Source: an uncultured Pseudomonadales bacterium (GTDB lineage: Bacteria; Patescibacteriota; Microgenomatia; UBA1400; UBA12028). Taken from it: a stretch of DNA of 54,422 nucleotides. This document shows positions 3,450 through 54,022 of this stretch, one piece after another. The notes under the pieces are model-generated. The model had not been told where the DNA came from and searched no databases. It saw only the letters and a list, made by a program, of their open reading frames with translations. The stretch lies in NCBI GenBank assembly GCA_964492495.1, contig CAZBKJ010000003.1:1-54422 (forward strand), written 5' to 3'. The translations under genes and the position numbers were made by a program. The first letter of the stretch is position 1. The number at the start of each line of letters is the position of its first letter.

Positions 3450-4604
3450 ATGAAAAAAGCAATCATTATTATTCCGACATATAACGAACGAGAGAATGTT
3501 TCTGCGCTCATTCCTGTATTGCTTGAGATTTTTTCGTCGATTCCCAACTGGGACATGGAGATTTTAGTGGTCGATGACACAAGTCCTGATGGAACAGCAG
3601 AGGCAGTCGAAGCTCTCAAAAAGAAAAACAAGAAAATTCACTTACTTGTAAATAAAGAGAAAGCAGGTCTTGGGAGTGCATACCTTAAAGGAATGGAAGA
3701 GGCATTTGATCGCTTGGGAGCCGATGTTGTGTTTGAGATGGATGCTGATTTTTCTCATGATCCATTAAAAGTTCCAACATTTCTTGCAGAAATTGAAAAA
3801 GGTGCCGACCTTGTTGTTGGATCTCGGTATATCAAAGGTGGCTCTATTCCAAGTGACTGGGGCTTTAGTCGCAAGTTTTTAAGTATTGTTGGCAATCTGG
3901 TAAACATGGTTGTATTAACAAATTTTCAGATTCATGACTGGACCACTGGATATCGAGCAATCACCAAAGAGGTTTTCTTGGCAATTCGCGGTGAAATGGA
4001 TACGAAGCAGTTTAGTGGGTATACATTTCAGATAGGCTTTTTGCATAAGACTCTGCGCAAGGGTTTTAGGATTGTTGAAGTTCCTATCCAGTTTATTGAT
4101 CGTAAAGTTGGTCAATCAAAGCTCGGGCCTGATTATATTAAAAGTGCACTCCAATATATTCTAGTTGCAAGAGCAAAAGAAATTGTGGCGAGCCATGTGT
4201 TTAAGTTCGGTATCGTTGGTGGAATTGGGTTTGTTATCAATGCAACAGCCCTGGGCGTACTGAGTTCACAGCGTATTGGCTTTTCGCCTGGAGATGCATC
4301 TGCAATAGGTGCAGAGGTCGCAATTGTCTCAAACTTCATGTTCAATAACTTTTGGACATTCTCAGAGCGTCAAGTGAGGACACCAGTTGCCCTTATCAAA
4401 AAGTTCGTTCAGTTTAATATTGCATCGCTTGGAGCAGTTGTTATTCAGAAAGTGGTTGTGGGCTTTGGAACACACTACACATCAGATGACTTAAAGTTTG
4501 TCTGGTTTATACTTGCGGTCATTATCGGAATGTTTGTAAACTTTGTTATCTACTCAAAAATCATTTGGAAAAAAACGGCAAACGAGCAAGTTGTGAAACA
4601 ATAG
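3450..4604 (+). CDS. GT2 polyprenol-phosphate mannosyl/glycosyl-transferase (DPM1/Ppm-like) fused to a C-terminal GtrA-like membrane domain
   Basis: The N-terminal part has IIIPTYNERENV, VVDDTSPDGT, EMDADFSHDP and GSRYIKGG, a DPM1-like GT2 pattern. The C-terminal roughly 130 aa has 4 TM segments with FKFGIVGGIGFVIN and FNNFWTF, typical of GtrA-family proteins. Confidence 0.85.
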   Translation: MKKAIIIIPTYNERENVSALIPVLLEIFSSIPNWDMEILVVDDTSPDGTAEAVEALKKKNKKIHLLVNKEKAGLGSAYLKGMEEAFDRLGADVVFEMDADFSHDPLKVPTFLAEIEKGADLVVGSRYIKGGSIPSDWGFSRKFLSIVGNLVNMVVLTNFQIHDWTTGYRAITKEVFLAIRGEMDTKQFSGYTFQIGFLHKTLRKGFRIVEVPIQFIDRKVGQSKLGPDYIKSALQYILVARAKEIVASHVFKFGIVGGIGFVINATALGVLSSQRIGFSPGDASAIGAEVAIVSNFMFNNFWTFSERQVRTPVALIKKFVQFNIASLGAVVIQKVVVGFGTHYTSDDLKFVWFILAVIIGMFVNFVIYSKIIWKKTANEQVVKQ

Positions 4605-4657
4605 AAGTAGCGTGGCTACCACAATGACGGTGATTTTGTGCTCGATCTGATTACAGT

Positions 4658-6160
4658 ATGCAGAAAATCCTGAGACAAAAATCACTTCTTCTGTTTATCT
4701 TCCTGCTACTCATAGGTACTTTTTTCCGTTTTTATAAGATTCGTCATACCATGCAGTTTTTGGGTGATCAGGGTAGAGATGCTCTGATTGCCAGACGCAT
4801 CATGTTTGAACGGCAACCAGCATTAATAGGCCCGGTGACAAGTGTTGGGAATATGTATCTTGGCCCGTTTTACTACTACTTCATGGTGTTTCCGCTTCTG
4901 CTTTCGTATCCTGATCCAATCGGTCCAACATTGGCTGTGGCGTTTGTGGGGGTCATGACGCTCGCTCTCATATATGTTGTTGGGAAAAAAATGTTTGGGA
5001 AAGAAATCGCATTCATTAGTATGGCGATCTACGCGATCAGTCCCATCGTTGTTACAAATGTACGCTTTTCATGGAATCCGAATATCGTTCCTTTTTTTAG
5101 TGTTCTTTTAGTGTACTGTTTGTATCTCTCATTGAAGGGAAACAGAAAAATTTGGGGATGGGTTGGACTTTTATGTGCGATACTTTTGCAACTTCACTAC
5201 ATCACACTCATACTGATCATGAGCGCATTTTTTGTATGGATTTTTGATTTAGGCAAACAGCTTCGATCAAAAAACTTCTCCCGTGATTTTTTCGTAACTA
5301 CACTGATTGGAATTTTGATTGGTATTGCCTCACTCTTCCCACTTGTCGCTTTTGATTTTCGACATGATCACTCAATTGCAAAGGCGTTTCAGTCTTTTTT
5401 TGACAAGCCTGCTGGTGAGTCACATTTTCGAAAAGTAAGCGAGCTGTCAGCACTCTTTTATGCAAGTGTCGGACTATACCTTCGAAATATATTTGAAGGA
5501 TTTGGATTAAAGCTTCCTCAAAACGGGGGATATATTGGCATTCTCGTATCACTCTACCTACTTATTCGGGGAGCTTTCTTTGGGCAAGAAAAAAAATACA
5601 AACGCAGCAAGGTATTTATATCGCTTGTCTTTTTGTTCTCACTTTTCATCTTTAGCTTTTACCGAGAATCTATCTTTGATCACTACTTAGGATTCATGTT
5701 CCCGATTGGCACGTTTGTGCTTGCGATCATGATTTATGCGCTTTGGGAAAATATATTTTTGCGTCCATTTGCTATTTCGGTTCTAGCGCTGATCGTGATT
5801 TTTTCGCTACGAAACTATCCAGGACAACACACACTTGGCTTAAATGTTGATGTATTTCGGGAAACAGCAGAACAGATTCAATCTCGAGTGCAAGATGGTC
5901 AAAGTTATGACATCCTTCTTTTGACAGAGAACAATGACTTTCTTGGGATGAATTACCGTTACTTTTTAACTACAATGAAGTACGTACCAGCAAAGGAAGA
6001 GGATATTTGGACATTTAAGCGATTGTTTGTGATAGATGAGCGTCGATCAAAAAACCCGCTTGATACACCGCAGTATAAAGTTGCAGTCTGGCCAAATCGA
6101 GATATTGTCGATGAGTTTACTATTGAAAATGGAGCGCATGTTGTCGTTTTAGAACGATAA
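4658..6160 (+). CDS. Polytopic membrane protein, putative GT-C glycosyltransferase (GT39/ArnT-PMT-like), DQGRD subfamily
   Basis: 500 aa with more than 10 predicted TM segments. The first-loop acidic motif is FLGDQGRDALIARRI followed by GPxTSxGxxYLGPFYYY. It is a clear paralogue of the next gene and of 34243-35481 (-). Confidence 0.7.
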   Translation: MQKILRQKSLLLFIFLLLIGTFFRFYKIRHTMQFLGDQGRDALIARRIMFERQPALIGPVTSVGNMYLGPFYYYFMVFPLLLSYPDPIGPTLAVAFVGVMTLALIYVVGKKMFGKEIAFISMAIYAISPIVVTNVRFSWNPNIVPFFSVLLVYCLYLSLKGNRKIWGWVGLLCAILLQLHYITLILIMSAFFVWIFDLGKQLRSKNFSRDFFVTTLIGILIGIASLFPLVAFDFRHDHSIAKAFQSFFDKPAGESHFRKVSELSALFYASVGLYLRNIFEGFGLKLPQNGGYIGILVSLYLLIRGAFFGQEKKYKRSKVFISLVFLFSLFIFSFYRESIFDHYLGFMFPIGTFVLAIMIYALWENIFLRPFAISVLALIVIFSLRNYPGQHTLGLNVDVFRETAEQIQSRVQDGQSYDILLLTENNDFLGMNYRYFLTTMKYVPAKEEDIWTFKRLFVIDERRSKNPLDTPQYKVAVWPNRDIVDEFTIENGAHVVVLER

Positions 6161-6170
6161 CAAGTGAACT

Positions 6171-7706
6171 ATGAAATTTTTTGCTAAAAGGAAGGTGGAA
6201 ATAGGACTCCTTCTTTTTTTATGTATTGTCGCTTTTTACTTGCGCTCCTACGGACTATACCGTGATCTTTTGTTTGCGTATGACCAAGGACGAGATGCGT
6301 TCGCAACTCAAAAAATTCTTCAAGGTGATATTACGCTCATCGGTCCAACGACAGGACTTACGGGAGTATTCCTTGGTCCATTTTGGTTTTACTTTATCAC
6401 TCCGTTGTATTTGATTGGATCGGGTAGTCCCATGGTCGCGGCATACGTGATGGCACTCTTTCATGTTGGGGTCGTCCTTCTTTTGTATCTCTTTGCGTCA
6501 AAAGTTGCAGGAAAAACAGCAGGTTTTGCAACAAGCATCCTCTATACCTTTTCCTTCTCCAATATTTTGTTCTCTCGTTGGTTATCAAATCCGACTACAC
6601 TGCCATTTTTTGCGTTGCTTGGCTTTTATTTACTCTGGAAAGCGATAGAAGAAAAAAAGCTGAAATTTTTTGTCCTTTCCGGCGTCGTTTTTGGTATTTG
6701 TTTGCAGTTGGAAGCTGCAAATGCAGTATGGTTTATCCCAACAGTTGCACTCATCGTACTCTACGAGTACGTAATCCTATCCTGGAAAAACATACAAGAA
6801 TTTCGATCTCATAAACTCCAGCCGTTACTTCAAAATCTTTTTGGTCTAGGACTGGGTGGTGTGATGACGCTTGTACCTCAATTTATTTTTGAGCTAAAAC
6901 ACAATTTTTTGGTAACAAAGAATCTCATTGCTGCCTTTCAGACAACTCATGAGAAAACGCTCTCAGATATTTTCGTTGATAGAGTGGAGCTTCTCTATGA
7001 ATTATACGCAAGGGGGCTTTTTGTAAACCATCACTGGCTATTTGGTGTAACCCTCATCTTCCTGCTTGGTTGTATCGCTTTCTATTGGAAACAGCTTTGG
7101 AGTTCGCGTGGATGGCGAATGATATTTTTGTGGTTTGTTGTGCCGTTGGTGTTTCATGCGACATACACTGGGAATCATGGAAATTTCTGGGATTACTATA
7201 TTCTTTCGCAACATCTAGTTTTGTATCTCCTTCTCGTGACTACATTTGTAATTGTGCTTCAACAGAATCCAAAGAATGTGATTCTAAAACTTGGGCTTGG
7301 CGTGTTTGTTGTCGTTTCGGCTATGCTAAATTTTGCAAAATGGACAGAAATACTGCAACCATACGAGAACCGGTATTCACTCCAGATGCAAGTTGATGAA
7401 ACACATTGGATGATCGAACAGGCAAGTGGTGAAGACTATGGTGTATGGGTCTACGCCCCAAACTATCAGGATGACCCGCATCGTTATGTATTTTCCTGGA
7501 TCGGGAAGAAAACAGGCATACAGCCAAAAGAGCATGTAGAACAACAACCACTCATCTTCCTTGCCGTGGAAGAAGATGGCTATTTCCCAGCTCGAAGAGA
7601 AGCATGGATTCGAGAAAAAATGGCGTTCGGTGAGCTTCTTGCCACAAAAAAATTTGGAGCGATAACTGTGTATAAACTCAAAAACACCTTTATTCAAAAG
7701 CAGTAG
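6171..7706 (+). CDS. Polytopic membrane protein, putative GT-C glycosyltransferase, DQGRD subfamily paralogue
   Basis: 511 aa. The YDQGRDAFATQKIL...GPTTGLTGVFLGPFWFYF block is collinear with 4658-6160, and the protein is multi-TM throughout. Confidence 0.7.
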   Translation: MKFFAKRKVEIGLLLFLCIVAFYLRSYGLYRDLLFAYDQGRDAFATQKILQGDITLIGPTTGLTGVFLGPFWFYFITPLYLIGSGSPMVAAYVMALFHVGVVLLLYLFASKVAGKTAGFATSILYTFSFSNILFSRWLSNPTTLPFFALLGFYLLWKAIEEKKLKFFVLSGVVFGICLQLEAANAVWFIPTVALIVLYEYVILSWKNIQEFRSHKLQPLLQNLFGLGLGGVMTLVPQFIFELKHNFLVTKNLIAAFQTTHEKTLSDIFVDRVELLYELYARGLFVNHHWLFGVTLIFLLGCIAFYWKQLWSSRGWRMIFLWFVVPLVFHATYTGNHGNFWDYYILSQHLVLYLLLVTTFVIVLQQNPKNVILKLGLGVFVVVSAMLNFAKWTEILQPYENRYSLQMQVDETHWMIEQASGEDYGVWVYAPNYQDDPHRYVFSWIGKKTGIQPKEHVEQQPLIFLAVEEDGYFPARREAWIREKMAFGELLATKKFGAITVYKLKNTFIQKQ

Positions 7707-7761
7707 GCGTGAATTTTCAGGCTCATGCGCTACAATATGTGAATACACTGTATTCATCCCT

Positions 7762-8511
7762 ATGCTAGTATCAATCATTTTTCCTTCCTATAACGAAATG
7801 TCTAATGTCAAAAAGGGTGTTCTTGATGACGTTATCACCTACTTAGGCACCGTAGACTGGGCTTGGGAGGTGTTACTGGCTGATGATGGATCCACCGATG
7901 GAACAGCAAGAGAACTTGAAAAATTTGCCTCGTCACATCCAAACGTTCGATATATTCCGCTTCCACATAGAGGGAAAGGTCCGACCGTTCTTGAAGCACT
8001 TCAAAAAGCAAAAGGAGATATTCGATTGTTTTCTGATTTTGATCAGGCAACCCCGCTCACGGAGATTGAAAAACTTCTTCCGTTTGTTGAAAAAGACTAT
8101 GATGTTGTGATTGGTTCTCGTGAAGTTCAGGGAGCTGAACGAAAGAGAGAGCCAATACATCGACATTTAATGGGAAAAGGATTTAATTTTTTGGTAAAAA
8201 TCATCGCGATTGGTGGAATTGCAGACACACAGTGCGGATTTAAGCTTTTTACCAAGAAAGCTGTTGACCTTTTGGCACCAAAAGTTTATGTGTACTCTGG
8301 AAAAGGCGAGCTCTCGGGAGCATTTACTGGAGCGTTTGATGTTGAGCTACTGTATCTTGCAAAGAAGTATAAACTGAAGATTGCAGAAGTGCCGGTATTT
8401 TGGAAGTATGTGAAAACATCTCGAGTTGATCCGGTCATTGACTCAATTAAAATGCTCAAAGATATTATTCGAATTCGAGTTGCAGATTTGAACGGGTTGT
8501 ACAAAGACTGA
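7762..8511 (+). CDS. GT2 polyprenol-phosphate beta-glycosyltransferase (ALG5/dolichyl-phosphate glucosyltransferase-like)
   Basis: IIFPSYNE, LADDGSTDGT, SDFDQATP and DTQCGFKLF form the ALG5/GtrB-like pattern. It is a 249-aa soluble GT2. Confidence 0.8.
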   Translation: MLVSIIFPSYNEMSNVKKGVLDDVITYLGTVDWAWEVLLADDGSTDGTARELEKFASSHPNVRYIPLPHRGKGPTVLEALQKAKGDIRLFSDFDQATPLTEIEKLLPFVEKDYDVVIGSREVQGAERKREPIHRHLMGKGFNFLVKIIAIGGIADTQCGFKLFTKKAVDLLAPKVYVYSGKGELSGAFTGAFDVELLYLAKKYKLKIAEVPVFWKYVKTSRVDPVIDSIKMLKDIIRIRVADLNGLYKD

Positions 8512-8554
8512 TAGTTTCTGCAAATACTTTCTTTTTTCTCCAGGGGCGGATACT

Positions 8555-9799
8555 ATGGAACGAATGAAGTATTTTCTGTATTATTTTGCCTTGATTTTCA
8601 CATCTGTATCACTGTTCTTTTGGAGTTTTACACAGACAGATAAAAATCTCTATTTCTTTTCCCATCCGTTGTTTGTGCAGTTTCAAGAGCGTATGTGGAT
8701 GGTTTCGAGGTCAACGAACTCGTGGGTCTATATACTTCTTATTCTTTTGTCTTTTGCTTTGTACGTGTTCTATCTTCGCGAGAAGAATGCCTCTTCGGAA
8801 AACAAGCAGTTACGCATCGCAGTGTTTGCCTGCTGTGCCGCTCTGTTACTTTTTTCAAACAACGCTCTTTCCCATGATTTGTTTAACTATATGTTTAATG
8901 CCAAAGCGGTTCTTGTGTATGGACAAGATCCACATGTACGCAGCGCACTTGAAATAGCACCTTCGGATGAATGGGTTCGTTTTATGCATAATGTCCATAC
9001 GACTGCTCCATACGGGTATGTGTGGACGTACCTTTCTCTTGTTCCAAGTATGCTAGGCTTTGACAAATTTATTACCACATTTCTTGCATTTAAGCTCAGC
9101 ATGGTACTTGGTTTTTTTGTTTTACTTTGGCTTCAGTTTCAGGTGTATCTCCAACAAAAAAAGAATGGAATCAAAAAAAATGTGGTATTTTCCCTCATTC
9201 CTTTTGCACTCAATCCCTTGGTCGTCATTGAAACATGTATGAATGGTCACAACGACGTGTGGATGATGGTCTTTGCTTTCGGATCTTTTTGGCTTTTGTT
9301 TCAATCAAGAAAACTCTTTTCTTTTCAGAGCATCATTTCGCTAGTCTTGCTTTTTATCTCTATTCAAATAAAAGAAGCCACACTTGTCCTTGTTCCAATT
9401 TGGGGACTCCTACTGTTTTGGAAGCTTGAGAAAAAAACTGTACTCCATCCACTTCTAAAAAAGTGTCTTCGCTTTTTTGGTGAAAACTGGGCAGAACTAT
9501 CTGCATTGGCATTGCTTCTTCCACTTGTAACTGAGAGGTCTCAGCAGTTTAATCCTTGGTATCTGATATGGTCGCTGACATTTCTTCCGTTTCTCTCATC
9601 CAAGATGTTGCGATACTTTCTCTTGACCTTGTCATTTACAAGTTGCCTGCGATATCTTCCTTTTTTGCTCGAAGGTGGGTATAGCGATACAATACAACTT
9701 CAAATGAGACTCATTACCTGGTCAGCGGTTCCGATATTTTTTCTTCTCTATTTTGGTATACAGTTTAGAAGTAGTAGAAAAACAAAAAATGCGACGTAA
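8555..9799 (+). CDS. Polytopic membrane protein, possible GT-C glycosyltransferase (GT87/DUF2029/PimE-like)
   Basis: 414 aa and multi-TM. The loop motif SHDLFNYMFNAKAVLVYGQDPH resembles the D..Y...G.nPY loop of GT87/DUF2029 mannosyltransferases. The family call is tentative. Confidence 0.55.
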   Translation: MERMKYFLYYFALIFTSVSLFFWSFTQTDKNLYFFSHPLFVQFQERMWMVSRSTNSWVYILLILLSFALYVFYLREKNASSENKQLRIAVFACCAALLLFSNNALSHDLFNYMFNAKAVLVYGQDPHVRSALEIAPSDEWVRFMHNVHTTAPYGYVWTYLSLVPSMLGFDKFITTFLAFKLSMVLGFFVLLWLQFQVYLQQKKNGIKKNVVFSLIPFALNPLVVIETCMNGHNDVWMMVFAFGSFWLLFQSRKLFSFQSIISLVLLFISIQIKEATLVLVPIWGLLLFWKLEKKTVLHPLLKKCLRFFGENWAELSALALLLPLVTERSQQFNPWYLIWSLTFLPFLSSKMLRYFLLTLSFTSCLRYLPFLLEGGYSDTIQLQMRLITWSAVPIFFLLYFGIQFRSSRKTKNAT

Positions 9800-11342
9800 A
9801 CTAGCACAGCTACCAAACTGGATCTGGCTGAGTCTACTGTATTGTGTAACTCATGTTCCATTCTTAACACTCTTACCGGTGTTTGCGGATGAAGCGATCT
9901 ATATTCGTTGGGCACAACTGATCATTGATGATGCTTCTCGATATGCGTTTTTTTCACTTGCTGATGGCAAACCTCCTCTTTTCATCTGGATTTTATCGCT
10001 TACTCTTCGTCTTTTTTCTGATCCGCTCTGGATTGCTCGACTGACTTCTGTAGCTATTGGTCTTGCGACTGTATTTGCAGTAGGCAAGCTTGCGACGATC
10101 CTTTCTGGACGAAAAAGCGTTGTCCTTTTCTCCCAGTTATTTACGATATTTCTCCCATTTTGGTGGTTTTACCATCGAATGGCACTGATGGATGGTTTAC
10201 TCACGCTGTGTATAACACTAGCTATCTACTTTTCACTCAAAATTGCTCGCGCCTGCCAGAGAGAGCGAAAAATTGCATACGATACAATCCCTGATATTTT
10301 ATTGTTGGCTGTAAGTTTTGGAGGAGCTCTCCTTACAAAAACACCTGCAATGTTTGCAGTGCCTGTGATTGCGAGTACGTCATTTTTTGCACTGATTCGG
10401 GTTCAAAAGAATACCAAGTCAACAATACAAAAGCTGTATGAGTCTGTACTCTTCATTGGAATTGGGGGTCTTTTGGGTGGAGTGCTTTTCCTTCTGCTAC
10501 GAATCTCTCCTTTTTTTGGTGCATTATTTTCAAGAAGTAGCGAGTACCGATTTACTATCCAAGAACTTTTGGGTGGAGAATGGAAGTATGTATTGTTCTC
10601 AAGCCTTCCAAGAGAGATTGTATGGACAAGTGCGTATCTCACTGTCGGGGCAATACTTCTCTCACTTTTTGGTTTGTACGAAAGAAGGACTCGAAAAACA
10701 GTCGCATTTTTATTGGGCTCTGCATTTATTTTTGCAATTCCACTGATTGCATTTGGACGGGTACTCTATCCACGGTATTTTCTGCCAATCGCGCCTTTTG
10801 TCACGATTGCTGCCGCTATCGGACTTGAAAGTTTGCTTTCAAAAGCCAAAGGAAAGTTCATTGGCTGGTTCCTTTTGCTCTTCTGTGGAATTCAAAGTAT
10901 GTTGTTTATCATTCCTGGTGTGAGTGATGTCGGAAAAATTCCTTTTGTGGCGATTGACCGAACTCAATATATTGAGGAATGGTCAGCCGGTTTTGGAAAT
11001 AGAGAAGTGTACGACTTTATTGTCAAAAGACACGGTGAACTTCGTGGAGAGAAGCGAATTATTGTCCTAACTGAAGGCTCATTTGGAACACTTCCAGATG
11101 GTCTATTTATGTATTTCTACGGCCCGCAAGCACTTGAAGGTGTGGAAATCCATGGTATTGGTGTTGCGCCAAACACACTCCCACAAAAGTACCTAGAGCA
11201 ACAACAAACTGCAGAACTGTACTACGCTGTGAATAGTCACCGTTTCGCTCTCATAGAAACTCAAAACCTTGAAAAAATTCTCGAGATACCACGTCCAGGA
11301 AATGCGCCATCACTTGTATTGTACCGGGTACGAAGCCTGTGA
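9789..11342 (+). CDS. ArnT/PMT-like GT-C glycosyltransferase (GT39/83-like)
   Basis: Start set at ATG 9789 (MRRKLAQ...), which overlaps the upstream stop. It has the FADEAIYIRWAQ acidic first loop, DGKPPLF, and many TM segments with a C-terminal soluble domain. Confidence 0.7.
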   Translation: MRRKLAQLPNWIWLSLLYCVTHVPFLTLLPVFADEAIYIRWAQLIIDDASRYAFFSLADGKPPLFIWILSLTLRLFSDPLWIARLTSVAIGLATVFAVGKLATILSGRKSVVLFSQLFTIFLPFWWFYHRMALMDGLLTLCITLAIYFSLKIARACQRERKIAYDTIPDILLLAVSFGGALLTKTPAMFAVPVIASTSFFALIRVQKNTKSTIQKLYESVLFIGIGGLLGGVLFLLLRISPFFGALFSRSSEYRFTIQELLGGEWKYVLFSSLPREIVWTSAYLTVGAILLSLFGLYERRTRKTVAFLLGSAFIFAIPLIAFGRVLYPRYFLPIAPFVTIAAAIGLESLLSKAKGKFIGWFLLLFCGIQSMLFIIPGVSDVGKIPFVAIDRTQYIEEWSAGFGNREVYDFIVKRHGELRGEKRIIVLTEGSFGTLPDGLFMYFYGPQALEGVEIHGIGVAPNTLPQKYLEQQQTAELYYAVNSHRFALIETQNLEKILEIPRPGNAPSLVLYRVRSL

Positions 11343-20257: not shown

Positions 20258-20259
20258 TC

Positions 20260-27411: not shown

Positions 27412-27541
27412 AGAGTTGTAACGACTAGAGTGTGTTGAAAGGAACACGAATCAAGGCATTATTTCATGGTAGTTCCAAGATGAGAAGTGCCTGATCTGAA
27501 GTCTTGTCATTCCACCAGCCAAAGGGTAGAGTAGGATCACA

Positions 27542-43494: not shown

Positions 43495-43527
43495 GTCTGA
43501 TTCTTCATTTTTTCGTACACTTTCTTT

Positions 43528-45081: not shown

Positions 45082-45089
45082 GGAGTATT

Positions 45090-46585: not shown

Positions 46586-46677
46586 TCTCCTTTTTGTTCT
46601 TGAAGTATACCAACCTGATCAAGCACAGGGAAATCGAATGTCAATTGAATCAAGTCCCATGTGGTAGCATAGGATCT

Positions 46678-47754
46678 ATGGCGCTTATTGGCTTGAATAC
46701 ACTTTTTCTAGTTCCAAACCAGGTCGGTGGAACTGAGTACCTCACACGAGCGTTTATTGATGCTCTGCAAAAAGACACAACTCATCAGTACGTCCTTTTT
46801 TGTAACAGAGAGAATGCAGATACCTTTCAGGTTGATCCCACAAGAATGAAGAAGGTCGTGTGTCCTGTATCGGCATCAAATCGTATTGCCCGAATAGTGT
46901 ATGAGCAGTGTATTTTTCCTTTTGTGATACAAAAAGAACGGTGTGATCTCTTACATTCCTTCGGGTACACCGCACCTTTTTTTGCTTCATGTCCACAGAT
47001 AACAACGGTTCATGACACCAACTGGCTTGATCATCCTGAAGATTTTTCTCTGCTTTCTCGGTTTATGACGAATGTCCTGGTGAGAGGGGCAATCAAGAAA
47101 AGTGTAAAAGTCATCACTGATAGTGCATTTTCAAAATCCAGACTTTTGTTGCACTTCCCAGATCACGTAAAAAAAGTTGAGATTGTTCTTCCGATCATTG
47201 ATACAAAACTCTACAAATCTCCTTTTGTTGTCGTCCCAAAAGAGTTGTCAGGAAAGAAGTATTTCTTGTGTGTCAGTGCACTATATCCACACAAAAAAAT
47301 TCCGTTTCTTCTCAAGCTTTGGGAAGAAATTGAGCAGCAAGACACAAAGATCCCCTTGGTTTTGGTTGGAAGAAATGGGAGAGATGAAGAAGGTGTTACA
47401 GCGAAACTGAAATCCTTGCAGTCTGTTGTCTATTTTCCCAAGGTTTCCTTTGAAATGCTGCAGTCCTTGTACCACCATGCTTCTGGGTTTATTCACCCTA
47501 GCGTCTACGAAGGTTTCGGATACCCGGTCTATGAGGCGTACGGAGCCTCTCTACCAATCCTTGTGGGGAAAAAGAACATGTATGAACAAAGCATACAAGC
47601 AAATCTAGAAGAGCTGACGTTTGATAGCAAAAAGGACAGTACAATGGTGAAGCGAATACTAGAGCGTACAAAAACAAAAAAGCCAAACCATCTCTGGAGT
47701 GATACAGACTCACTACAAAACCTACTTATCGTGTATGCAAAAGCACTTCAATAA
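46678..47754 (+). CDS. GT4 (group 1) glycosyltransferase
   Basis: Start set to ATG 46678 (MALIGLNTLFLVPNQVGGTEYL). The E-x7-E block is SVYEGFGYPVYEAYGASLPILV. Confidence 0.8.
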   Translation: MALIGLNTLFLVPNQVGGTEYLTRAFIDALQKDTTHQYVLFCNRENADTFQVDPTRMKKVVCPVSASNRIARIVYEQCIFPFVIQKERCDLLHSFGYTAPFFASCPQITTVHDTNWLDHPEDFSLLSRFMTNVLVRGAIKKSVKVITDSAFSKSRLLLHFPDHVKKVEIVLPIIDTKLYKSPFVVVPKELSGKKYFLCVSALYPHKKIPFLLKLWEEIEQQDTKIPLVLVGRNGRDEEGVTAKLKSLQSVVYFPKVSFEMLQSLYHHASGFIHPSVYEGFGYPVYEAYGASLPILVGKKNMYEQSIQANLEELTFDSKKDSTMVKRILERTKTKKPNHLWSDTDSLQNLLIVYAKALQ

Positions 47755-49579
47755 ACTTACCCTAGAAATAGTCGTGCTCTTCTCAGGACTCTTTGTAGTT
47801 GGAAGCTCGTATGTGCTTTCATTTTTCAACGCATTCTCTCAAGTGTACCTTTCGATGGTCGCTGTCATCCTTTGTTTTTTTTGGATGGGTTTTATCTACT
47901 CGAAGTTCCCCAAAGTAAAGTACTCATCCATTTCATTTCGCCGTCACATCACACTGTGTGTCTTTGGAATTTTCGCTCTACTCACATTCTTTCAAGGGTT
48001 TTTGTCTCGGCCAACGACGACAGATGCTCATAACTACCATATTGCTCGTGCGATGTACTGGATGGCCGATAGAACAGTACTGCAAGATCAAGTCTATACT
48101 TCACATGACTTCATGGGTCCATTCCCAAGCATGCTCAATGCAGTTCTCTATAGTACTCTAGACGCCGATACACTCTTGTTTTTTGGACAATGGATTTCGT
48201 TTGTCTTGTGTTTCTTTTTGGTAGGAAGGCTTGCGGATTCACTATCGGCAACGCCTACCCAGAGAAAGATTGCACAACTTTTATTTCTTGCGATTCCCAT
48301 CGTCGTGCTTGAAGCAAGTAGTACGCAAGCAGACCTACTGGTCACTGTGTGGTCGCTTTTGACAGTTCTTTTTGCACTGCGCTACAGGTATCAAGCGAAG
48401 TCACATACTCTCATTTTTCTCTGTCTTGCTGTTGGCTTAGGGATTCTTACCAAAGCGACCATGTATATCTATGCGATCATTCCTTTTATCATTGTTGTGT
48501 GGTCTTTTTATCACAGCAAAGAGAAAGTGAAGAGCGTTTTGTTTGGAAGTGCTGGAATTCTGTGTCTGGTTTCACTCCTGCTTCCGATGGTGCTTCAAAA
48601 CAAACGGCTCTTTGACTCATATCTTGGGGATAGTTACAAAATAGAAGGAGGGAAAATACCCTTTACAGTCACTGAGTATACGATTGGTGGTGCCATTTTG
48701 AATGTCTATAGAAATATTGTGATGAATGTGCCATTTCTTGTCTTTGCTCCTCAAATTGATCGTATCGTCGAGCCTGTGTTCATTTCTCTTGGAACATCAT
48801 TTTCAGATAGGCGATATGCATGGTTTGAGCAGAAGTTTGAACATTTGTCGTTTCCAATCCCTCAAGAAGACATAGCTCCTGCTCCTATTCAGGTTGTATT
48901 GATCCTCACTGCGACAGCTTTTGTATGGAAGAGGAAAGGAAAGAAAGAGCTAGCAGTTCTTTTTTATGCTTCTGTCCTTTCGTTTGTAGTTTTCTCCGTT
49001 GTATTGCTTTGGCAGGAATATCATGTCCGACAACACATATCTCTCATGGTGATTTTCTTGCCAGTGGTTGCGCTCGTCATTCCTTTTTCACAATACATCT
49101 GGAAAATAATTGTTGCACTCTCAGTCTCATCTGCATTTGTTGTCCTTCTTGCCAATACATCAAGGCCTCTCATCTCGTACGAACATATATTCCCATATAT
49201 TTCATCCTATGCGCCAACGGGCTTTTCTCCGCCTGAATCCGTTTTGTATGGTAGAACTGACCAGCAACTGTTTTTGTCACGACCATACTGGTATACACCG
49301 TATACAGAAACAATCGCTCTACTGCGACAAAATAATATTCGTGTTGTCCGCCTACGTGTGGACGAAGGGTACATCTATCCCTTTATAGCGCTGGCAAAAG
49401 ACAAAGGAATAGTTGTTGTTTCAAATGCAACAACTCCAGTTGAAGCTGAAGTCTTTGCTGGACTGAGAGAAAAATATCAATTTGCTCCAGCCGATAGCTG
49501 CATTGCTGTCCAGGGTCAGCGACAGATTATGTGCGTTCGTTTTGCCGTACCAACAATACAGAAAATCTCCAGTCTATGA
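47735..49579 (+). CDS. Large polytopic membrane protein, putative GT-C-like glycosyltransferase
   Basis: Start set to ATG 47735 (MQKHFNKLTLEIVVLF). There are about 13 TM segments, the first large loop is TTDAHNYHIARAMYWMADR, and there is a C-terminal soluble domain. The family is not firmly assignable. Confidence 0.5.
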   Translation: MQKHFNKLTLEIVVLFSGLFVVGSSYVLSFFNAFSQVYLSMVAVILCFFWMGFIYSKFPKVKYSSISFRRHITLCVFGIFALLTFFQGFLSRPTTTDAHNYHIARAMYWMADRTVLQDQVYTSHDFMGPFPSMLNAVLYSTLDADTLLFFGQWISFVLCFFLVGRLADSLSATPTQRKIAQLLFLAIPIVVLEASSTQADLLVTVWSLLTVLFALRYRYQAKSHTLIFLCLAVGLGILTKATMYIYAIIPFIIVVWSFYHSKEKVKSVLFGSAGILCLVSLLLPMVLQNKRLFDSYLGDSYKIEGGKIPFTVTEYTIGGAILNVYRNIVMNVPFLVFAPQIDRIVEPVFISLGTSFSDRRYAWFEQKFEHLSFPIPQEDIAPAPIQVVLILTATAFVWKRKGKKELAVLFYASVLSFVVFSVVLLWQEYHVRQHISLMVIFLPVVALVIPFSQYIWKIIVALSVSSAFVVLLANTSRPLISYEHIFPYISSYAPTGFSPPESVLYGRTDQQLFLSRPYWYTPYTETIALLRQNNIRVVRLRVDEGYIYPFIALAKDKGIVVVSNATTPVEAEVFAGLREKYQFAPADSCIAVQGQRQIMCVRFAVPTIQKISSL

Positions 49580-50535
49580 AAAAGAAACGCCCAAGTGTGT
49601 GTTTTTTTGTGATTGCCTACGGACAGGAAGAAATTGTAGATGCGTGTTTGAAAAATCTCACGACTCTTTTTTCCCCCCAAGATATTTGGTTGATTGATAA
49701 TGCATCACCAACAAGTCTTGCAAAGATAGCAAAAAAATATGGGGTTCACTGTGACAGGCAGGTTGAGAATAAGGGATATTCAGGTGGATGCAATAGTGCC
49801 GTCTCAATTTTTCAAAAAAAGACAACTGCAGATGTCTGTTGTTTGCTCAACAGTGATGTGTTTTTTGATGGGCAGTTTGTTGCGCAGTTGCCATACGAGT
49901 TGTTACGTTTACAACACGACTTGAAACTTGCACTTATTCAGCCAGTACTCTATATGGATACCCAAAAGGGACGAGTTGAGAATAATGGAATACGATACTT
50001 TCAAAGCGGTCTCGCGTTTCAGTCGATGCGAGACAGTGGCAAGGTGGTCGTGAATGGTGCGTGCATGTTACTCAAGCGTGTAGCAGTAGAAGATATCATT
50101 TCTCAAGATGGGTTTTGTTTTGAAGAGATTTTTTGGAGCTATGCGGAAGATGTTGAGCTATCGTTGCGGTTACTCTCAAGAGGCTGGAAAATTGATGTGA
50201 GTCCCTTGCTCTCTGCACAGCACTTGGGCTCTGTTTCATTTGGGAGAGGCTCTAGCAGATCGAGGTATTTGTATGCTCGAAATCTTTTTTGGACAATACT
50301 TATAGCCTGGGATCGAAAAATGCTTGAAAAATACGTCTTGCACGTGTTTGTCGGTCAATTGCGCATCTTTGTTGAGTTTGCTGTTAGTGGAGAAATTGGA
50401 GGGTATATAAAACTCTTACGAGAATCCCAGGAAAAAAAGAATGTACTCTTGAAAAAAAGAGAAAATTTTCAAGGAAAGAAAACACATTCATTTGAAGCGT
50501 ATCTACAACCAGGAAGTTTCCCTGTCAGGCGTTAA
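49576..50535 (+). CDS. GT2 glycosyltransferase
   Basis: Start at ATG 49576 (ATGA overlap). Motifs are VCFFVIAYGQEE, IDNASPTS, NKGYSGGCNSA and LLNSDVFF. Confidence 0.75.
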   Translation: MKKKRPSVCFFVIAYGQEEIVDACLKNLTTLFSPQDIWLIDNASPTSLAKIAKKYGVHCDRQVENKGYSGGCNSAVSIFQKKTTADVCCLLNSDVFFDGQFVAQLPYELLRLQHDLKLALIQPVLYMDTQKGRVENNGIRYFQSGLAFQSMRDSGKVVVNGACMLLKRVAVEDIISQDGFCFEEIFWSYAEDVELSLRLLSRGWKIDVSPLLSAQHLGSVSFGRGSSRSRYLYARNLFWTILIAWDRKMLEKYVLHVFVGQLRIFVEFAVSGEIGGYIKLLRESQEKKNVLLKKRENFQGKKTHSFEAYLQPGSFPVRR

Positions 50536-52388
50536 AAGAACTCGTCGTACCATTTTGCCAGCATAAAGAATTTCCAGAGTTGAGCTGAGTAGTCACTCAC
50601 CCCATCCTGGTGATAGGTATACATCTTTTGGATTGTCGCAAAATCGAGCACAGTGAAGAGCTGGTGTGATGAATCGGTGAACACACGATCAAACTGTTTT
50701 TTTAGTGTCGTTTTCATCCATTCATTGACTGGTAAAACGAATCCTCGTTTGGGAAGCATTCGAATGTGTTCTGGAATGAGATCAGTACAGGCTTCTTTGA
50801 GAATCCATTTGGTTTCTCCATGCTTTTGTTTAAGCGACAATGGAATTGTGGCTGCAAACTCAACCAATCGGTAGTCAAGCAAGGGAGATCGTCCTTCAAG
50901 TGCCCACTGCATACTGGCAATGTCGATCTTGGTCATCAGTCCATCTGGTAAAACTGTCTGCAGATCCATTGAAAGTACCGAACTCACTGGATCACGACCG
51001 TTTGAAGGAAGATGTTTTTGCATTTCTTTTTGGATTGTGTTGCTGTGATCCTTCCACATATCGTTCATCTGTATACCATTGGTGTATCCTCTGGCATACA
51101 AAGGGTACGTTGAAAGCGGATCACCGGACATAAGGTGAGATACTCGCAGTATTCGCTGATACAGTTGGTTTGGCAAAAGTGTTGAAGCAAATGGAGACAC
51201 AAGCTGATAGATAAGTGAAGCAGGAAGCTTCAACCACGCAAGACGTGAAATAAACTGAAGCGTCGTATAGTTGCTGTATCCGAAAAAATTTTCATCGCCT
51301 CCATCGCCGTTTAATGCGACTGTCACGTGTTTTCGGGCTAGCTGGCTTACGTAGTACGACGGAATAGCAGATGAGTCTCCAAATGGCTCATCGTACGCTC
51401 TGACAATTTTTCCAAGGAGTTCATCTCCAACTTTGGGATGAATCTCTAACTGTGTATGTTTTGTGTGGTGAAACTCACTTGAAATTTTCGCATCTTGTCT
51501 CTCATCCATTCCCCAACTAGGAGAACCGACCGTAAACGTGCGAATAGGACGAGCTGACGCCCGACTCATTATTCCTGTCACGATACACGAATCAACACCA
51601 CCTGATAAAAAGGCTCCGATAGGTACGTCACTAATCATTCGTAAAGAGACCGCAGAATCTAACAGCGAGCGGAGTTCTTTTTTCGTTTCATGAATACTTC
51701 GATCAAGATTTGGTTGCATCTTCACAGACCAATACGACTGAATTGTGAGTGAACCATTGTGAAGCAGCAGAAATGATGCCGGAGGAAGTTTGAAGATGTT
51801 TTTGAAGCCAGTTTTTGGAGAAGGCACAAATCCCCAATAGATGTATGAAGCGATGGCGTCGTTATCAATCTCCTTTGGAATCTCATTTTGTGTGAAGAGA
51901 GCTTTGATCTCTGATGCAAAAGCAAATGTCTTTCCATCAAAAAAATACTTGAAGGGTTTTTTTCCTAGTCTGTCTCTGGCTGCAAACAGGACATCTTCTT
52001 TTTTGTCATAGATAACAAATGCAAACATGCCGTTAAAATACTCCACACACTTTGTTCCATACTCCTGATACATCGCAAGCATCACTTCAGTATCAGAGGA
52101 AGAAGTAAATCGGTACTTTTTTCGTTCAAGTCGTTCTTTAAGCTCTTGGAAGTTGTAGATTTCTCCATTAAACGTAATCCAAAACCGTCCGTTGGCATAA
52201 CTCATTGGTTGATGTCCTTTGGGGGAGAGATCAATGATTGCGAGCCTTTGCTGTGCGAGTCCGACATTCCCGATGATTTCTACACCGGCGTCATCTGGGC
52301 CTCGATGGTGTATTGCCTGATTCATCCTGCTAAGATCGGCTTTTTTTGGCACCTTCTGACTCGAGTATTTGCCACAAATTCCACACAT
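50532..52388 (-). CDS. asnB: Asparagine synthase (glutamine-hydrolysing)-family amidotransferase
   Basis: It has the N-terminal nucleophile MCGICG, the Ntn-amidotransferase block RGPDD...HQP and the PP-loop FLSGGVDSCIV, at 618 aa. Confidence 0.9.
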   Translation of the reverse strand: MCGICGKYSSQKVPKKADLSRMNQAIHHRGPDDAGVEIIGNVGLAQQRLAIIDLSPKGHQPMSYANGRFWITFNGEIYNFQELKERLERKKYRFTSSSDTEVMLAMYQEYGTKCVEYFNGMFAFVIYDKKEDVLFAARDRLGKKPFKYFFDGKTFAFASEIKALFTQNEIPKEIDNDAIASYIYWGFVPSPKTGFKNIFKLPPASFLLLHNGSLTIQSYWSVKMQPNLDRSIHETKKELRSLLDSAVSLRMISDVPIGAFLSGGVDSCIVTGIMSRASARPIRTFTVGSPSWGMDERQDAKISSEFHHTKHTQLEIHPKVGDELLGKIVRAYDEPFGDSSAIPSYYVSQLARKHVTVALNGDGGDENFFGYSNYTTLQFISRLAWLKLPASLIYQLVSPFASTLLPNQLYQRILRVSHLMSGDPLSTYPLYARGYTNGIQMNDMWKDHSNTIQKEMQKHLPSNGRDPVSSVLSMDLQTVLPDGLMTKIDIASMQWALEGRSPLLDYRLVEFAATIPLSLKQKHGETKWILKEACTDLIPEHIRMLPKRGFVLPVNEWMKTTLKKQFDRVFTDSSHQLFTVLDFATIQKMYTYHQDGVSDYSAQLWKFFMLAKWYDEFF

Positions 52389-52474
52389 AAAAGGTCTTTC
52401 GTACAGAGGATATAATGTAATTCCTTTGTATCATAGTTTTGACCAAACTTCGACTCGTGTGGTATAGAGAGAGG

Positions 52475-54022
52475 ATGTTTGCAAAAATACTGCAGCGTCG
52501 CTTTTTTTGGATTCTTTCTATCAGCCTGTTTCTCTCTGCGACACTGTTTTCCAATTTACAGTATGCGAAGTGGTCACCAATCGATGATCACGAGATCATG
52601 GTTTTTTTAAAAGGCGCGCAGAGAATTACACTCCATGACGCCTGGCAACTATGGACACGTGATCTATCTGGAACCAGGCGATTCCATCCTGCATACTCGT
52701 TCCTTCGAGTATTGGAAACGCTTTTGTGGGGTGACAATCTAACTCTGTGGTATAGCTTTCGTATACTCATATTTGGATGCACATTCGCGCTCACATGGTA
52801 TTTCTGCACTCCAGTACTGGGATTCGTATTATCCTTTCTCCTTACGCTAACATTCTTCACACAAGGATTCTGGGCAGATATTGTCGGGAGACTAGGGCCT
52901 GCTGAAATATATGCTGTTCTTGGTGCAACAATCACAGGCGTCGGATTCTTCCCACTGTACGTAAGCCTACTTCATGAGAGAACAATAGAAAAAAACTGGT
53001 GGAGATACGTGGCTCTTGGTACATGCATAACTGTGTTTTCAAAAGAAAACATGATCGTATTTGTGGTTCCGATTGTTTTTCTGTTCATCGTGACTATTGG
53101 CAAGCGAAGACTCACGCAAACAGCGCTCATTGCTTTTTTTCTTATTGGTCTTACAACCATAGGAACTGTAGTTGGAATCACTGATATTGCAAAAACCTAT
53201 GGCAGTGACGTGTATGGAAACTCATTGGGGGCACAGAGCCGGGTAGAACTCGTAAAGACGACAGTCATGCTAAAAACCTCACTTGTCTTGATTGCGTTCG
53301 TTGTCACTTCATTTATTTTCTTTCTTTTTTCTGATCACTCAAGAAAAAAGCTCTGGATTTCTGTATTTTTTGTCCTCCTATTTGCAGAAAGCTTGTTTAT
53401 TAGTCAATTTGTCTTCTATGTCGGAAAATGGCCTACACAAACTCGGTATGATTTTCCTGGGATACTTTTTTCTTTTTTCATGCTGATTGTAGCTTGTCGA
53501 GTGTTCTTACTTGGAAGAAAAATCTTTTCTCAAAGAAAAACATACCTTCAGCTTTCATACGCGCTGATCTGCTTCTTCGCTTTCTTCTACTTCGTAAAAA
53601 CCCAACAAATCCGATCACTACAGACCGATGTGTCTACCTATACTTCTATGACGAGAAGATATAGTGAAGGGGTAGAACGAATACTCCTCGCCTCTACATA
53701 CCCACCAGATAAAAATGTCATTATTGAATCCACTTCCACTAATGATTTGGAAACAATTCATGCAATCGGTGTGTATATCAGACAGTCAAATCTGCATCCC
53801 AAGCTATTCCTTCGAGTTCATCAAACGCCAGCGGATGTGTTCTTTGATCCTTTTCACACGTCTTTGCTTCTTAGCCTCCAAAAATCCTCCACTGAGGGAA
53901 CGGACATTTTTATGCCGCTTGAGAAACTGAATGAGAAATTGCCGTGCATTTCTTTTTTCCTCAATGAAAAAAAAGATACCGAGTGTGTGGAGTATTACAT
54001 CGTAGATACACAGTTTCGCTAA
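52475..54022 (+). CDS. Polytopic membrane protein, putative GT-C-like glycosyltransferase
   Basis: Start set to ATG 52475 (MFAKILQRRFFWIL). The acidic first loop is WSPIDDHEIMVFL. There are about 11 TM segments and a C-terminal soluble domain. Confidence 0.5.
   Translation: MFAKILQRRFFWILSISLFLSATLFSNLQYAKWSPIDDHEIMVFLKGAQRITLHDAWQLWTRDLSGTRRFHPAYSFLRVLETLLWGDNLTLWYSFRILIFGCTFALTWYFCTPVLGFVLSFLLTLTFFTQGFWADIVGRLGPAEIYAVLGATITGVGFFPLYVSLLHERTIEKNWWRYVALGTCITVFSKENMIVFVVPIVFLFIVTIGKRRLTQTALIAFFLIGLTTIGTVVGITDIAKTYGSDVYGNSLGAQSRVELVKTTVMLKTSLVLIAFVVTSFIFFLFSDHSRKKLWISVFFVLLFAESLFISQFVFYVGKWPTQTRYDFPGILFSFFMLIVACRVFLLGRKIFSQRKTYLQLSYALICFFAFFYFVKTQQIRSLQTDVSTYTSMTRRYSEGVERILLASTYPPDKNVIIESTSTNDLETIHAIGVYIRQSNLHPKLFLRVHQTPADVFFDPFHTSLLLSLQKSSTEGTDIFMPLEKLNEKLPCISFFLNEKKDTECVEYYIVDTQFR

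Follow-up and report, generated by a model that had tools for sequence, protein, structure and literature searches.

A conserved GT-C-rich locus in a Microgenomates-type bacterium, probably an enlarged transmembrane glycosylation system

The window analysed here, a stretch of 54,422 bp, is a complete contig (CAZBKJ010000003.1, assembly GCA_964492495.1) with 94% coding content, and it carries a putative envelope-glycosylation locus rich in glycosyltransferase (GT) genes, above all in genes for polytopic membrane proteins of GT-C type. An inventory by open reading frame (ORF) list and Pfam, the Pfam scans taking in the 47 window ORFs of at least 150 aa, yielded 11 GT2, three GT4, one Wzx and 14 polytopic proteins (412-669 aa), and thereby reproduced the counts given in an earlier note on this DNA, which had included one frameshifted polytopic gene. 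Named by first coordinate, and on the forward strand unless marked, the GT2 genes are 3450, 7762, 14563, 15451, 16464, 18729, 24871, 31536, 32451, 40712(-) and 49531, the GT4 genes 17626, 27542 and 46594, and the polytopic genes 4658, 6171, 8555, 9753, 11339, 20998, 23180, 25742-27447(-), 28611, 34243(-), 35484(-), 38030, 47699 and 52439. The GT-C-like genes cover 41% of the contig. The locus does not start at 3450, where the note had placed its beginning, but at base 28, with genes for UDP-glucose dehydrogenase, an epimerase/dehydratase and GDP-mannose 4,6-dehydratase (Gmd) in 28-3186, and it is broken by housekeeping genes, namely SOD (20260-20859) and an LDH-to-HIT block (41840-46300).

Six polytopic proteins pass the Pfam PMT_2 cut-off of 26.1 bits. 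Two of them carry a DQGRD motif (4658..6160, +, 35.6 bits; 6171..7706, +, 26.6 bits), and a third a DQGY motif, at 35481 (34243..35481, -, 34.5 bits). The others are a PMT_2/PMT-type protein with ADEAIY at residue 45 (9753..11342, +, PMT_2 48.2 bits and PMT 35.6 bits), a further PMT_2/PMT-type protein with WEE...FGDY (23180..24889, +, PMT_2 51.4 bits) and the N-terminal part (26758-27447, PMT_2 45.6 bits) of the frameshifted gene, which encodes HQDE...FGDY (25742..27447, -). The 20998 product (20998..22581, +; WDE...FGDY) has no PMT_2 match of its own and is classed as PMT_2-like by paralogy with the 23180 product (phmmer 1e-35); its ortholog at related locus L043 has weak PMT and PMT_2 matches. 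Two paralog groups emerge, one of 4658, 6171 and 34243 and the other of 20998, 23180 and 25742-27447. Conserved Asp/Glu/His motifs follow an early transmembrane (TM) helix in the polytopic GT-C-like proteins, and the acidic motifs quoted in the earlier note (ADEAIY; WDE, WEE and HQDE with FGDY; DQGRD, DQGRD and DQGY; HDLFNY...GQDP) are all present in that position. The topology, with eight or more TM helices and an acidic residue in loop 1, was taken from hydropathy and from two predicted models. In the frameshifted gene, the alignment with an intact 564-aa ortholog runs in frame -3 as far as 26833 and resumes in frame -2 at 26755; the stretch between (26755-26833) holds A5, T6 and T5 runs, too short for phase variation, and either a true pseudogene or an assembly error is possible. 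Two PMT_2-type GT-C genes are separated by a small DUF1653 gene (22942-23175, +, 88 bits), which is also present at this place in related locus L004.

Among the other seven polytopic proteins, that encoded beside the Wzx gene (11339..13042, +) is assigned to the PTPS_related/YfhO type by family profile matches. The protein itself reaches 25.2 bits with PTPS_related against a cut-off of 26.4. Among its 24 family members, homologs from a metagenome scan, PTPS_related is matched by 21 (best 2e-19), YfhO by five, PMT_2 by five and GT-C_AftD by two. The 38030 product (38030..39367, +; DWDAMTLYDFRAK) appears to be a divergent PMT_2-like GT-C; it has no PMT_2 match of its own and 7 of 19 family members match (best 8.7e-7). 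A WYDSLLYH-containing membrane protein of the LIC_10190/DUF8201 family (35484..37073, -) is a probable GT-C; it reaches 114 bits with NF047510 (cut-off 100), and PF26626 is found in an ortholog, DUF8201 being present in that ortholog's precomputed annotation and undetected in the family by our own Pfam scan. The TTDAHNYH-containing 47699 product (47699..49579, +), probably a GT-C related to the LIC_10190 family, matches PMT_2 (21.7 bits, cut-off 26.1) and LIC_10190 (25.8 bits) over the same region. For the 8555 product (8555..9799, +; HDLFNY...GQDP), a probable GT87-like GT-C and the weakest assignment, the evidence is a TIGR03459 MptA match (E 1.1e-8, 34.5 bits against an equivalog cut-off of 439), with no Pfam GT87 match even at E up to 1 and no PDB or profile link. 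Of the families that the earlier note had listed for an HMM classification, the PMT_2 cut-off is thus passed by six proteins, PTPS_related is matched below cut-off by the 11339 protein and matched by most of its family, and Pfam GT87 is not matched by the GT87-like candidate 8555.

The last two polytopic proteins, encoded at 28611..30620 (+) and 52439..54022 (+; real start probably Met13), belong to no Pfam family, nor the former to any NCBIfam family, and Pfam matches were found in none of the 18 members of the 52439 family. The 28611 family comprises 92 homologs, all annotated 'hypothetical' and found only in Microgenomates-type bacteria of the candidate phyla radiation (CPR). Invariant residues could be identified in five families: D143 (28611), D37, D38 and H39 (52439, within an IDDHE motif after TM1), D39 (11339), D126 and D132 (38030) and D112 (35484). 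Comparison of family pairs by hhalign was mostly uninformative, with a signal for three pairs only: 38030 with 35484 (93% probability, 'DWDAL.LYDF' aligned to 'WYDT.LYH'), 47699 with 35484 (87.5%) and 11339 with 28611 (89%, HD and DG..H motifs aligned, the signal appearing in one of two runs). Sequence-profile searches of the PDB gave nothing useful for any polytopic family, and jackhmmer searches with the 8555, 37097 and 47699 proteins against the retrieved protein set added no homologs. The 37097 gene (37097..38026, +) encodes a 309-aa membrane protein of about six TM helices, with DUF6044 at 16 bits only and no PDB or profile link; it lies directly upstream of the 38030 gene, here and in L004/L042, and may encode a subunit or partner of that enzyme.

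Structure models cover 2 of the 14 polytopic proteins, 28611 and 52439. The AlphaFold2 (AF2) model of 28611, built from 46 sequences, has a predicted local distance difference test score (pLDDT) of 92.3 and a predicted TM-score (pTM) of 0.93, with about 16 TM helices and a C-terminal globular domain, and the AF2 model of 52439 has a pLDDT of 86. Searched against the PDB with Foldseek, as the earlier note had proposed, both models gave top matches that were GT-C proteins throughout: the top 19 for 28611 (DPY19, STT3, AglB, AftA, PglB, ArnT, EmbB and Pmt1; E down to 1.4e-7) and the top 22 for 52439 (STT3, DPY19, ALG12, AftA, PglB, AglB and Pmt4; E down to 4.6e-4). Unrelated proteins (transporters, oxidases, repeat and designed proteins) were matched by the 28611 model only at probabilities below about 0.4. 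The models thus assign a GT-C fold to two protein families known only as 'hypothetical' and lacking a database family.

The prominence of STT3, AglB and PglB among these matches raises the speculation that the locus directs protein glycosylation of archaeal, Agl-like type, in which a GT2 primes, cytoplasmic GTs extend, a Wzx-like protein flips, 28611 or 52439 acts as an STT3-shaped oligosaccharyltransferase onto S-layer or pilin proteins and PMT_2-type GT-Cs add the last sugars. In Haloferax volcanii, the Agl pathway of N-glycosylation (AglJ/G/I/E, AglD, AglR, AglB and AglS) has a GT2 that primes polyprenyl monophosphate, a Wzx-like protein that flips, a GT-C that transfers and a PMT_2-like GT-C that adds the final sugar, taken from a lipid-phosphate-linked donor. 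The C-terminal domain of 28611 matches that of AglB-S2 (3vu0, target-normalised TM-score (TMt) 0.5), window GT2s have AglJ and haloarchaeal dolichyl phosphate (Dol-P) hexose transferase among their best NCBIfam matches, and the 20998 gene weakly matches Agl23. However, the AglJ and Agl23 matches are far under their cut-offs, the locus has no gene for an acceptor protein, and no polytopic protein has a WWDYG-type motif, W[WYF]D being absent outside loop 1 in all of them; the lack of this STT3/AglB signature is the reason that oligosaccharyltransferase membership of 28611 and 52439 was rejected. Moreover, the likeness to oligosaccharyltransferases is considered a generic GT-C match, because DPY19, AftA and ALG12 score equal to STT3, AglB and PglB, and ArnT about as well. 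The organism, furthermore, is a bacterium. An Agl-like pathway is considered decidedly unlikely.

Whether the polytopic proteins might instead be transporters, Wzy polymerases, ligases or SEDS-type proteins can be judged from the same data. Such an identity could be suggested by the lack of any match at scan thresholds for 8555, 20998, 28611, 38030 and 52439, by the lack of a Pfam match for 35484 and by a weak Wzy_C match of the 11339 protein, although the remaining proteins are tied to PMT_2-like families by profile comparison and, in the Foldseek lists of both models, transporters appear only at probabilities of 0.1 or less, below all GT-C matches. A Wzy identity of 11339 was rejected, Wzy_C reaching 18.5 bits (cut-off 31.7) and occurring in 1 of 24 family members as against 21 of 24 for PTPS_related. 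This explanation is largely refuted and must be considered extremely improbable; none of the 14 polytopic proteins appears to be a transporter or a Wzy, and their earlier designation as GT-C enzymes is upheld by Pfam, paralogy, profile comparison and the two models. Judged from sequence and model evidence, support for GT-C membership is moderate to strong for 13 of the 14 proteins (moderate for 47699 and 35484) and weak for 8555. A link between the LIC_10190/DUF8201 family and GT-C, new here, is probable from the profile comparisons. By family knowledge, the GT-C enzymes would use lipid-phosphate-linked sugar donors.

Candidate enzymes for the synthesis of such donors are encoded in the locus, three of the GT2 products resembling polyprenyl-phosphate sugar synthases. 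The first is a GT2 fused to a GtrA/DPMS TM domain (3450..4604, +; Glycos_transf_2 92 bits, GtrA_DPMS_TM 61 bits), a candidate polyprenyl-phosphate hexose synthase with AglJ, PgfS, Dol-P hexose transferase and ArnC as best NCBIfam matches, all below cut-off; its product was the sole record returned by an exact-protein look-up, on a 1.3-kb Logan contig. The second (7762..8511, +) is a candidate polyprenyl-phosphate sugar synthase with sub-threshold best matches to PgfS, ArnC and Dol-P hexose transferase. The third (31536..32198, +), a candidate polyprenyl-monophosphate N-acetylhexosamine (HexNAc)/hexose synthase of GacI/WpsA/PpgS/AglJ type, has PpgS (90 bits) and AglJ (89 bits) as best NCBIfam matches, well under the equivalog cut-offs of 370 and 325, and directly precedes the gene of its presumed partner, a small DUF2304 membrane protein of the GacJ/WpsB/Rv3632 family (32168..32533, +; 64 bits against a cut-off of 25.5). 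A further GT2 gene follows (32451..33284, +; true start probably near 32508; Glycos_transf_2 86 bits), and the trio is kept in L004, L042 and L043. GacJ, the activator of the undecaprenyl phosphate (Und-P)-N-acetylglucosamine (GlcNAc) synthase GacI, is a DUF2304 protein, and so is Rv3632, which pairs with PpgS in mycobacteria (10.1101/180810). With three synthase-like GT2s beside a battery of GT-Cs, the logic proposed in the earlier note, in which lipid phosphate is charged inside and glycosylation takes place outside, appears well supported by these family assignments.

The pathway does not seem to be purely extracytoplasmic. Next to the 11339 GT-C gene lies that of a Wzx-type flippase of the multidrug/oligosaccharidyl-lipid/polysaccharide (MOP) superfamily (13018..14547, +), with a Polysacc_synt_3 score of 163 bits against a cut-off of 23 and PRK10459 as best NCBIfam match (124 bits, below the 273 cut-off), followed by three cytoplasmic GT2 genes (14563-15447, 15451-16503 and 16464-17315, all + and Glycos_transf_2), a GT4 gene (17626..18732, +; Glycos_transf_1 61 bits) and another GT2 gene (18729..19634, +; Glycos_transf_2 54 bits). 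The module of 11339-type GT-C, Wzx, GT2s, GT4 and GT2 is found again, at 32-49% identity, in L007, L008 and L009; the GT-C and Wzx pair stands alone in L006 and L011, the 11339 family adjoins Wzx in L002, L006, L008, L009 and L011, and the order of the three GT2 genes (14563-17315) is kept in L002, L007, L008 and L009. Conservation of a GT-C with Wzx, four GT2s and one GT4 implies that an oligosaccharide would also be built in the cytoplasm and flipped, and that the pathway would be a hybrid.

In the window, the earlier note had seen no initiating phosphoglycosyltransferase (PGT), Wzy, Wzz or ABC exporter, and searches agree with this. PF00953 (MraY/WecA), PF02397 (Bac_transf), Wzz and ABC-transporter families had no match among the scanned window ORFs; about 85 kb of syntenic relatives (the Pfam-annotated L004, L005, L042 and L043) likewise yielded no PGT, Wzy_C or Wzz; and a PGT/Wzy/Wzz motif scan of the window and 43 related loci found none. 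Of the two findings that the earlier note had named as refuting its reading, transporter or polymerase identity of the polytopic proteins and a wecA/wzy/wzz set just beyond the window, neither turned up in the window or in these relatives. Wzy_C gave only the 18.5-bit match of 11339 in the window, although Wzy is divergent and absence by profile is not proof. In many bacteria wecA is distant from the glycan locus, and in Enterobacteria neither wecA nor wzz is part of the O-antigen cluster; the absence of a PGT from the locus is weak evidence for this reason. A conventional Wzx/Wzy polysaccharide locus of undecaprenyl pyrophosphate (Und-PP) type, for a capsule, an O-antigen-like polysaccharide or an S-layer glycan, could accordingly be envisaged, with PGT, polymerase and chain-length regulator encoded elsewhere and the GT-Cs serving side-chain decoration. 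Wzx followed by four GT2s and one GT4 resembles the cytoplasmic half of the textbook pathway, the sugar-nucleotide and tailoring genes are typical of Wzx/Wzy loci and, the window being a whole contig, the rest of the genome, in which the missing genes may sit, is outside view. Against this, Wzy_C, Wzz and PGT are lacking from 54 kb and from the syntenic relatives, the gene conserved beside Wzx encodes a GT-C and not a Wzy, fourteen GT-Cs far exceed the usual need for side-chain decoration, and a GacI/GacJ-type pair for priming on monophosphate is present in the locus. A conventional locus of this kind is considered unlikely.

Comparison across related genomes, which the earlier note had called for, revealed that at least three genomes share the gene order, with identities of 35-77%. 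Locus L002 (GCA_964509365.1) keeps the run of genes from 3450 to 23180 in unchanged order (46-76% identity), with the continuation of the locus in L043, part of the same genome; in a second genome (Logan SRR25168019; L004 and L042) the order is kept from 18729 to the last gene, and an intact copy of the gene frameshifted here (25742-27447) is present. At the L042 junction (12699-14676), the equivalent of the 40712 GT2 gene is directly followed by the GT4, GT-C and GT2 genes of 46594-50535, without the housekeeping block; because it is absent there, the LDH-Crp-VKOR/DHODH-ferric-reductase-like-HIT block (41840-46300) is regarded as an indel inside the locus. The term 'island', in the sense of horizontal transfer, could not be sustained. 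GC content is flat across the window (0.39-0.43), no tRNA was found in its 54,422 bp, an Rfam scan of it matched no RNA family, and no mobility genes were found among its Pfam-scanned ORFs; taken with synteny in three genomes, the flat GC and the lack of tRNA and mobility genes led to rejection of a horizontally acquired island. Not being mobile, and given its synteny and the arrays that are common around its homologs, the locus appears to be an ancient, vertically inherited feature of the clade and not unique to this genome. The density of GT-C-like genes is 3-5 per 10 kb in related CPR loci, and denser arrays occur in other metagenomic and CPR loci: L005 has ten polytopic genes within 22 kb, L013-L015 have eight or nine, and both L013 and L015 contain a tandem run of seven PMT_2 paralogs. 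The richness in GT-C genes, called exceptional in the earlier note, is therefore exceptional in comparison with model bacteria and typical within the clade.

Paralogy and variation between relatives suggest a further possibility, namely a rapidly evolving group of paralogous decorating enzymes, redundant in part, that diversifies surface glycans, for phage evasion or host matching, through copies gained, lost or inactivated, with no single ordered line. Paralog groups and one frameshifted copy would fit such a set, as would copy-number differences between relatives (in L004 an additional gene of 595 aa, in L043 a second 677-aa gene, in L013 and L015 the tandem paralogs) and the divergence of GT-C orthologs (33-55% identical) as against neighbouring soluble enzymes (65-77%). 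Most of the genes nevertheless correspond one to one, and in conserved order, among three genomes, which argues for a stable core pathway, and diversification is compatible with, and not exclusive of, the transmembrane glycosylation system that is favoured below. As an explanation of the whole locus, a redundant decorating set is quite unlikely.

Sugar-nucleotide supply is represented at the start of the locus by UDP-glucose 6-dehydrogenase (28..1140, +; truncated at its 5' end by the contig boundary; Pfam UDPG_MGDP_dh N, central and C domains, E 1e-28 to 1e-34), an NAD-dependent sugar-nucleotide epimerase/dehydratase (1106..2104, +; Pfam Epimerase and GDP_Man_Dehyd, no NCBIfam equivalog reached) and Gmd (2173..3186, +; TIGR01472 458 bits against a cut-off of 415). 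A GalE-like sugar-nucleotide 4-epimerase (30637..31539, +; Epimerase 210 bits, TIGR01179 217 bits, below the 262 cut-off) and a GDP-L-fucose synthase-like reductase/epimerase (33297..34241, +; NF047922 283 bits, below the 500 cut-off) are encoded further on. Candidate tailoring enzymes are an S-adenosylmethionine (SAM)-dependent methyltransferase (39231..40187, +; Methyltransf_23 91 bits), which may O-methylate the glycan, a hexapeptide-repeat acyltransferase (40180..40728, -; Hexapep 69 bits), which may O-acetylate it, and an AsnB-type glutamine amidotransferase (50532..52388, -; Asn_synthase 300 bits; best NCBIfam match the exopolysaccharide (EPS)-associated amidotransferase TIGR03108, 511 bits, below cut-off), which may amidate sugars. 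The remaining GTs are GT2s at 24871..25740 (+; Glycos_transf_2 74 bits), 40712..41530 (-; 43 bits) and 49531..50535 (+; 43.5 bits) and GT4s at 27542..28576 (+; Glycos_transf_1 90 bits) and 46594..47754 (+; 65 bits).

Considered as a whole, the locus is probably an envelope-glycosylation locus that works as an enlarged multi-component transmembrane glycosylation system, a reading based on observed family and fold assignments, gene order and conservation, the other steps being inferred. Cytoplasmic enzymes would supply UDP-glucuronic acid (UDP-GlcA), GDP-fucose or another GDP-6-deoxyhexose, and a 4-epimerised UDP-sugar. The GT2s 3450 (GtrA-fused), 7762 and 31536 (with its DUF2304/GacJ-like partner) may load single sugars onto polyprenyl monophosphate, on which priming would occur. 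At least one lipid-linked sugar would probably be extended by the eight other GT2s and three GT4s and flipped by Wzx, while monosaccharide carriers may cross the membrane aided by the GtrA domain. Outside, about 14 GT-C-fold enzymes would move the lipid-linked sugars or oligosaccharides to an acceptor and to each other's products, branching and possibly polymerising the glycan, and the 11339 protein (PTPS_related/YfhO type, beside Wzx) would be the likeliest of them to act on the flipped oligosaccharide. The methyltransferase, acetyltransferase and AsnB-type amidotransferase would tailor the glycan with methyl, acetyl and amide groups, and candidate acceptors are a wall polymer, a lipoglycan or surface proteins.

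By analogy, the closest precedents appear to be Gram-positive multi-component transmembrane glycosylation systems, namely S. pyogenes GacI/GacJ/GacK/GacL and the lactococcal polysaccharide pellicle (PSP) pathway of WpsA/WpsB, WpsC to WpsF, WpsG and WpsH/J (PMC10821137; 10.1101/180810; review PMC8035078). In the latter, WpsA/B make GlcNAc-P-C55, WpsC extends it, a Wzx-type flippase exports it and GT-C-fold enzymes polymerise and attach the chain, an experimentally supported bacterial route that, for this chain, requires neither a PGT nor a classical Wzy (PMC10821137). The GT2-DUF2304-GT2 trio of the present locus mirrors the order wpsA-wpsB-wpsC. In contrast to those systems, which have 1-3 GT-Cs, the present locus encodes about 14, along with three candidate lipid-sugar synthases; its Wzx gene is 17 kb away from the GacI/J-like pair, genes for a rhamnan (rgp/rml) scaffold are absent, and the organism is a CPR bacterium.

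The mycobacterial logic suggested in the earlier note seems right in kind, although mycobacteria offer a looser analogue than the documented Gac and Wps systems. Assembly of mycobacterial lipomannan (LM), lipoarabinomannan (LAM) and arabinogalactan (AG) depends on many GT-Cs acting on few polyprenyl-phosphate donors, the proteins concerned including PimE, MptA/B/C, EmbA-C, AftA-D, Ppm1, PpgS/Rv3632 and Rv3779. The present locus shares with them a PpgS-like GT2 with a DUF2304 partner, the GT87-like candidate 8555 and matches of AftA/AftD type in fold or profile. It differs in having no sequence-level orthology to Emb, Aft or Mpt proteins (the sole match reaching 34 bits), no genes for decaprenyl-phospho-arabinose, and its genes gathered in one locus of a genome of about 1 Mb, whereas those of mycobacteria are dispersed. 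Extracytoplasmic protein O-glycosylation by GT-Cs is known from streptococci, with GtrB/PgtC2 and PgfS/PgfM1/PgfM2 (PMC12041528), and from the PMT enzymes of actinobacteria and eukaryotes. Known acceptors of GT-Cs of YfhO and PMT type are teichoic acids, wall polysaccharides or Ser/Thr-rich segments of proteins (PMC8035078, PMC12041528). The PgfS-like matches of 3450 and 7762 and the YfhO/PTPS_related and PMT_2/PMT-type GT-Cs are points of likeness, but there is no gene for an acceptor adhesin or Ser/Thr-rich protein here, PMT MIR domains are absent, and the GT-Cs far exceed what monosaccharide O-glycosylation would need.

Several observations weigh against a transmembrane glycosylation system of this kind. 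The matches of the three synthase candidates are far below equivalog cut-offs and prove neither sugar specificity nor even a lipid acceptor. A PGT, Wzy or Wzz could lie elsewhere in the genome, and the Wzx module could then belong to an ordinary Und-PP pathway. The Foldseek query-normalised TM-scores (TMq) are moderate for both models (0.36-0.48), though the lists are purely GT-C. The 8555 gene is assigned by one weak match and the 37097 gene has no assignment; the GT-C status of 35484 and 47699 depends on a chain of profile comparisons; and, one GT-C gene being frameshifted, not all copies need be functional. A stronger form of the proposal is possible, and more tentative. In this form, the main surface glycoconjugate of Microgenomates-type CPR bacteria would be built almost wholly outside the membrane by an independently evolved line of about 14 GT-Cs using only three or four polyprenyl-monophosphate donors, with no PGT or Wzy; a YfhO/PTPS_related-type GT-C would carry out the en-bloc transfer or polymerase step; and at least three GT-C families (28611, 52439 and LIC_10190/DUF8201) would have gone unrecognised as glycosyltransferases in databases.

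The source organism is taken to be a Microgenomates/Woesebacteria-like CPR bacterium because homologs of the lineage-specific window proteins bear the names Candidatus Woesebacteria, Cerribacteria, Roizmanbacteria or 'Patescibacteria group'. The 292-kb contig CAZDWN010000003.1 (L002/L043, GCA_964509365.1) is titled 'uncultured Pseudomonadales bacterium', is syntenic with the CPR locus and encodes proteins that cluster with those of Woesebacteria type; since the named homologs are all of the four kinds above, the title was rejected as a mislabel, and it is probably wrong. Within the housekeeping block, at 43528-45719, one ORF joins a VKOR domain (residues 9-140) to dihydroorotate dehydrogenase (DHODH, residues 215-508) and is followed by a gene for a ferric-reductase-like 7-TM protein, the pair forming an electron module of quinone/haem type that is unusual for a CPR genome. 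A 188-aa ORF antisense to the ferric-reductase-like gene (45269-45835, -) matches no family and is unlikely to be a real gene. Two of the few intergenic gaps contain short purine-rich (G/A) tandem repeats, at 17419-17496 (38-nt unit, 2.1 copies) and 22590-22637 (21-nt unit, 2.3 copies).

In the CPR literature, multi-copy 'dolichol-phosphate mannosyltransferases' have been mentioned in passing (PMC4736985, PMC6031116), glycosylation in the group has been called unexplored (PMC11623550), and our literature searches on GT-C enzymes and mannosyltransferases in CPR bacteria found nothing specific. New here are the scale of the system (about 14 GT-Cs on 41% of the contig), the CPR setting, two putative GT-C families without a database family and the probable link between LIC_10190/DUF8201 and GT-C; the fold proposed for two 'hypothetical' families and this link improve annotation well beyond the present contig. 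CPR bacteria are ultra-small, mostly uncultured and attached to other cells, and their surface decides host recognition, phage sensitivity and immune visibility. The genome is likely to be about 1 Mb in size, judging from contigs of 1.08-1.19 Mb in relatives, and the locus, of about 50 kb, would take up approximately 4-5% of it. The commitment of such a share of a small genome to one conserved locus points to a major envelope glycoconjugate.

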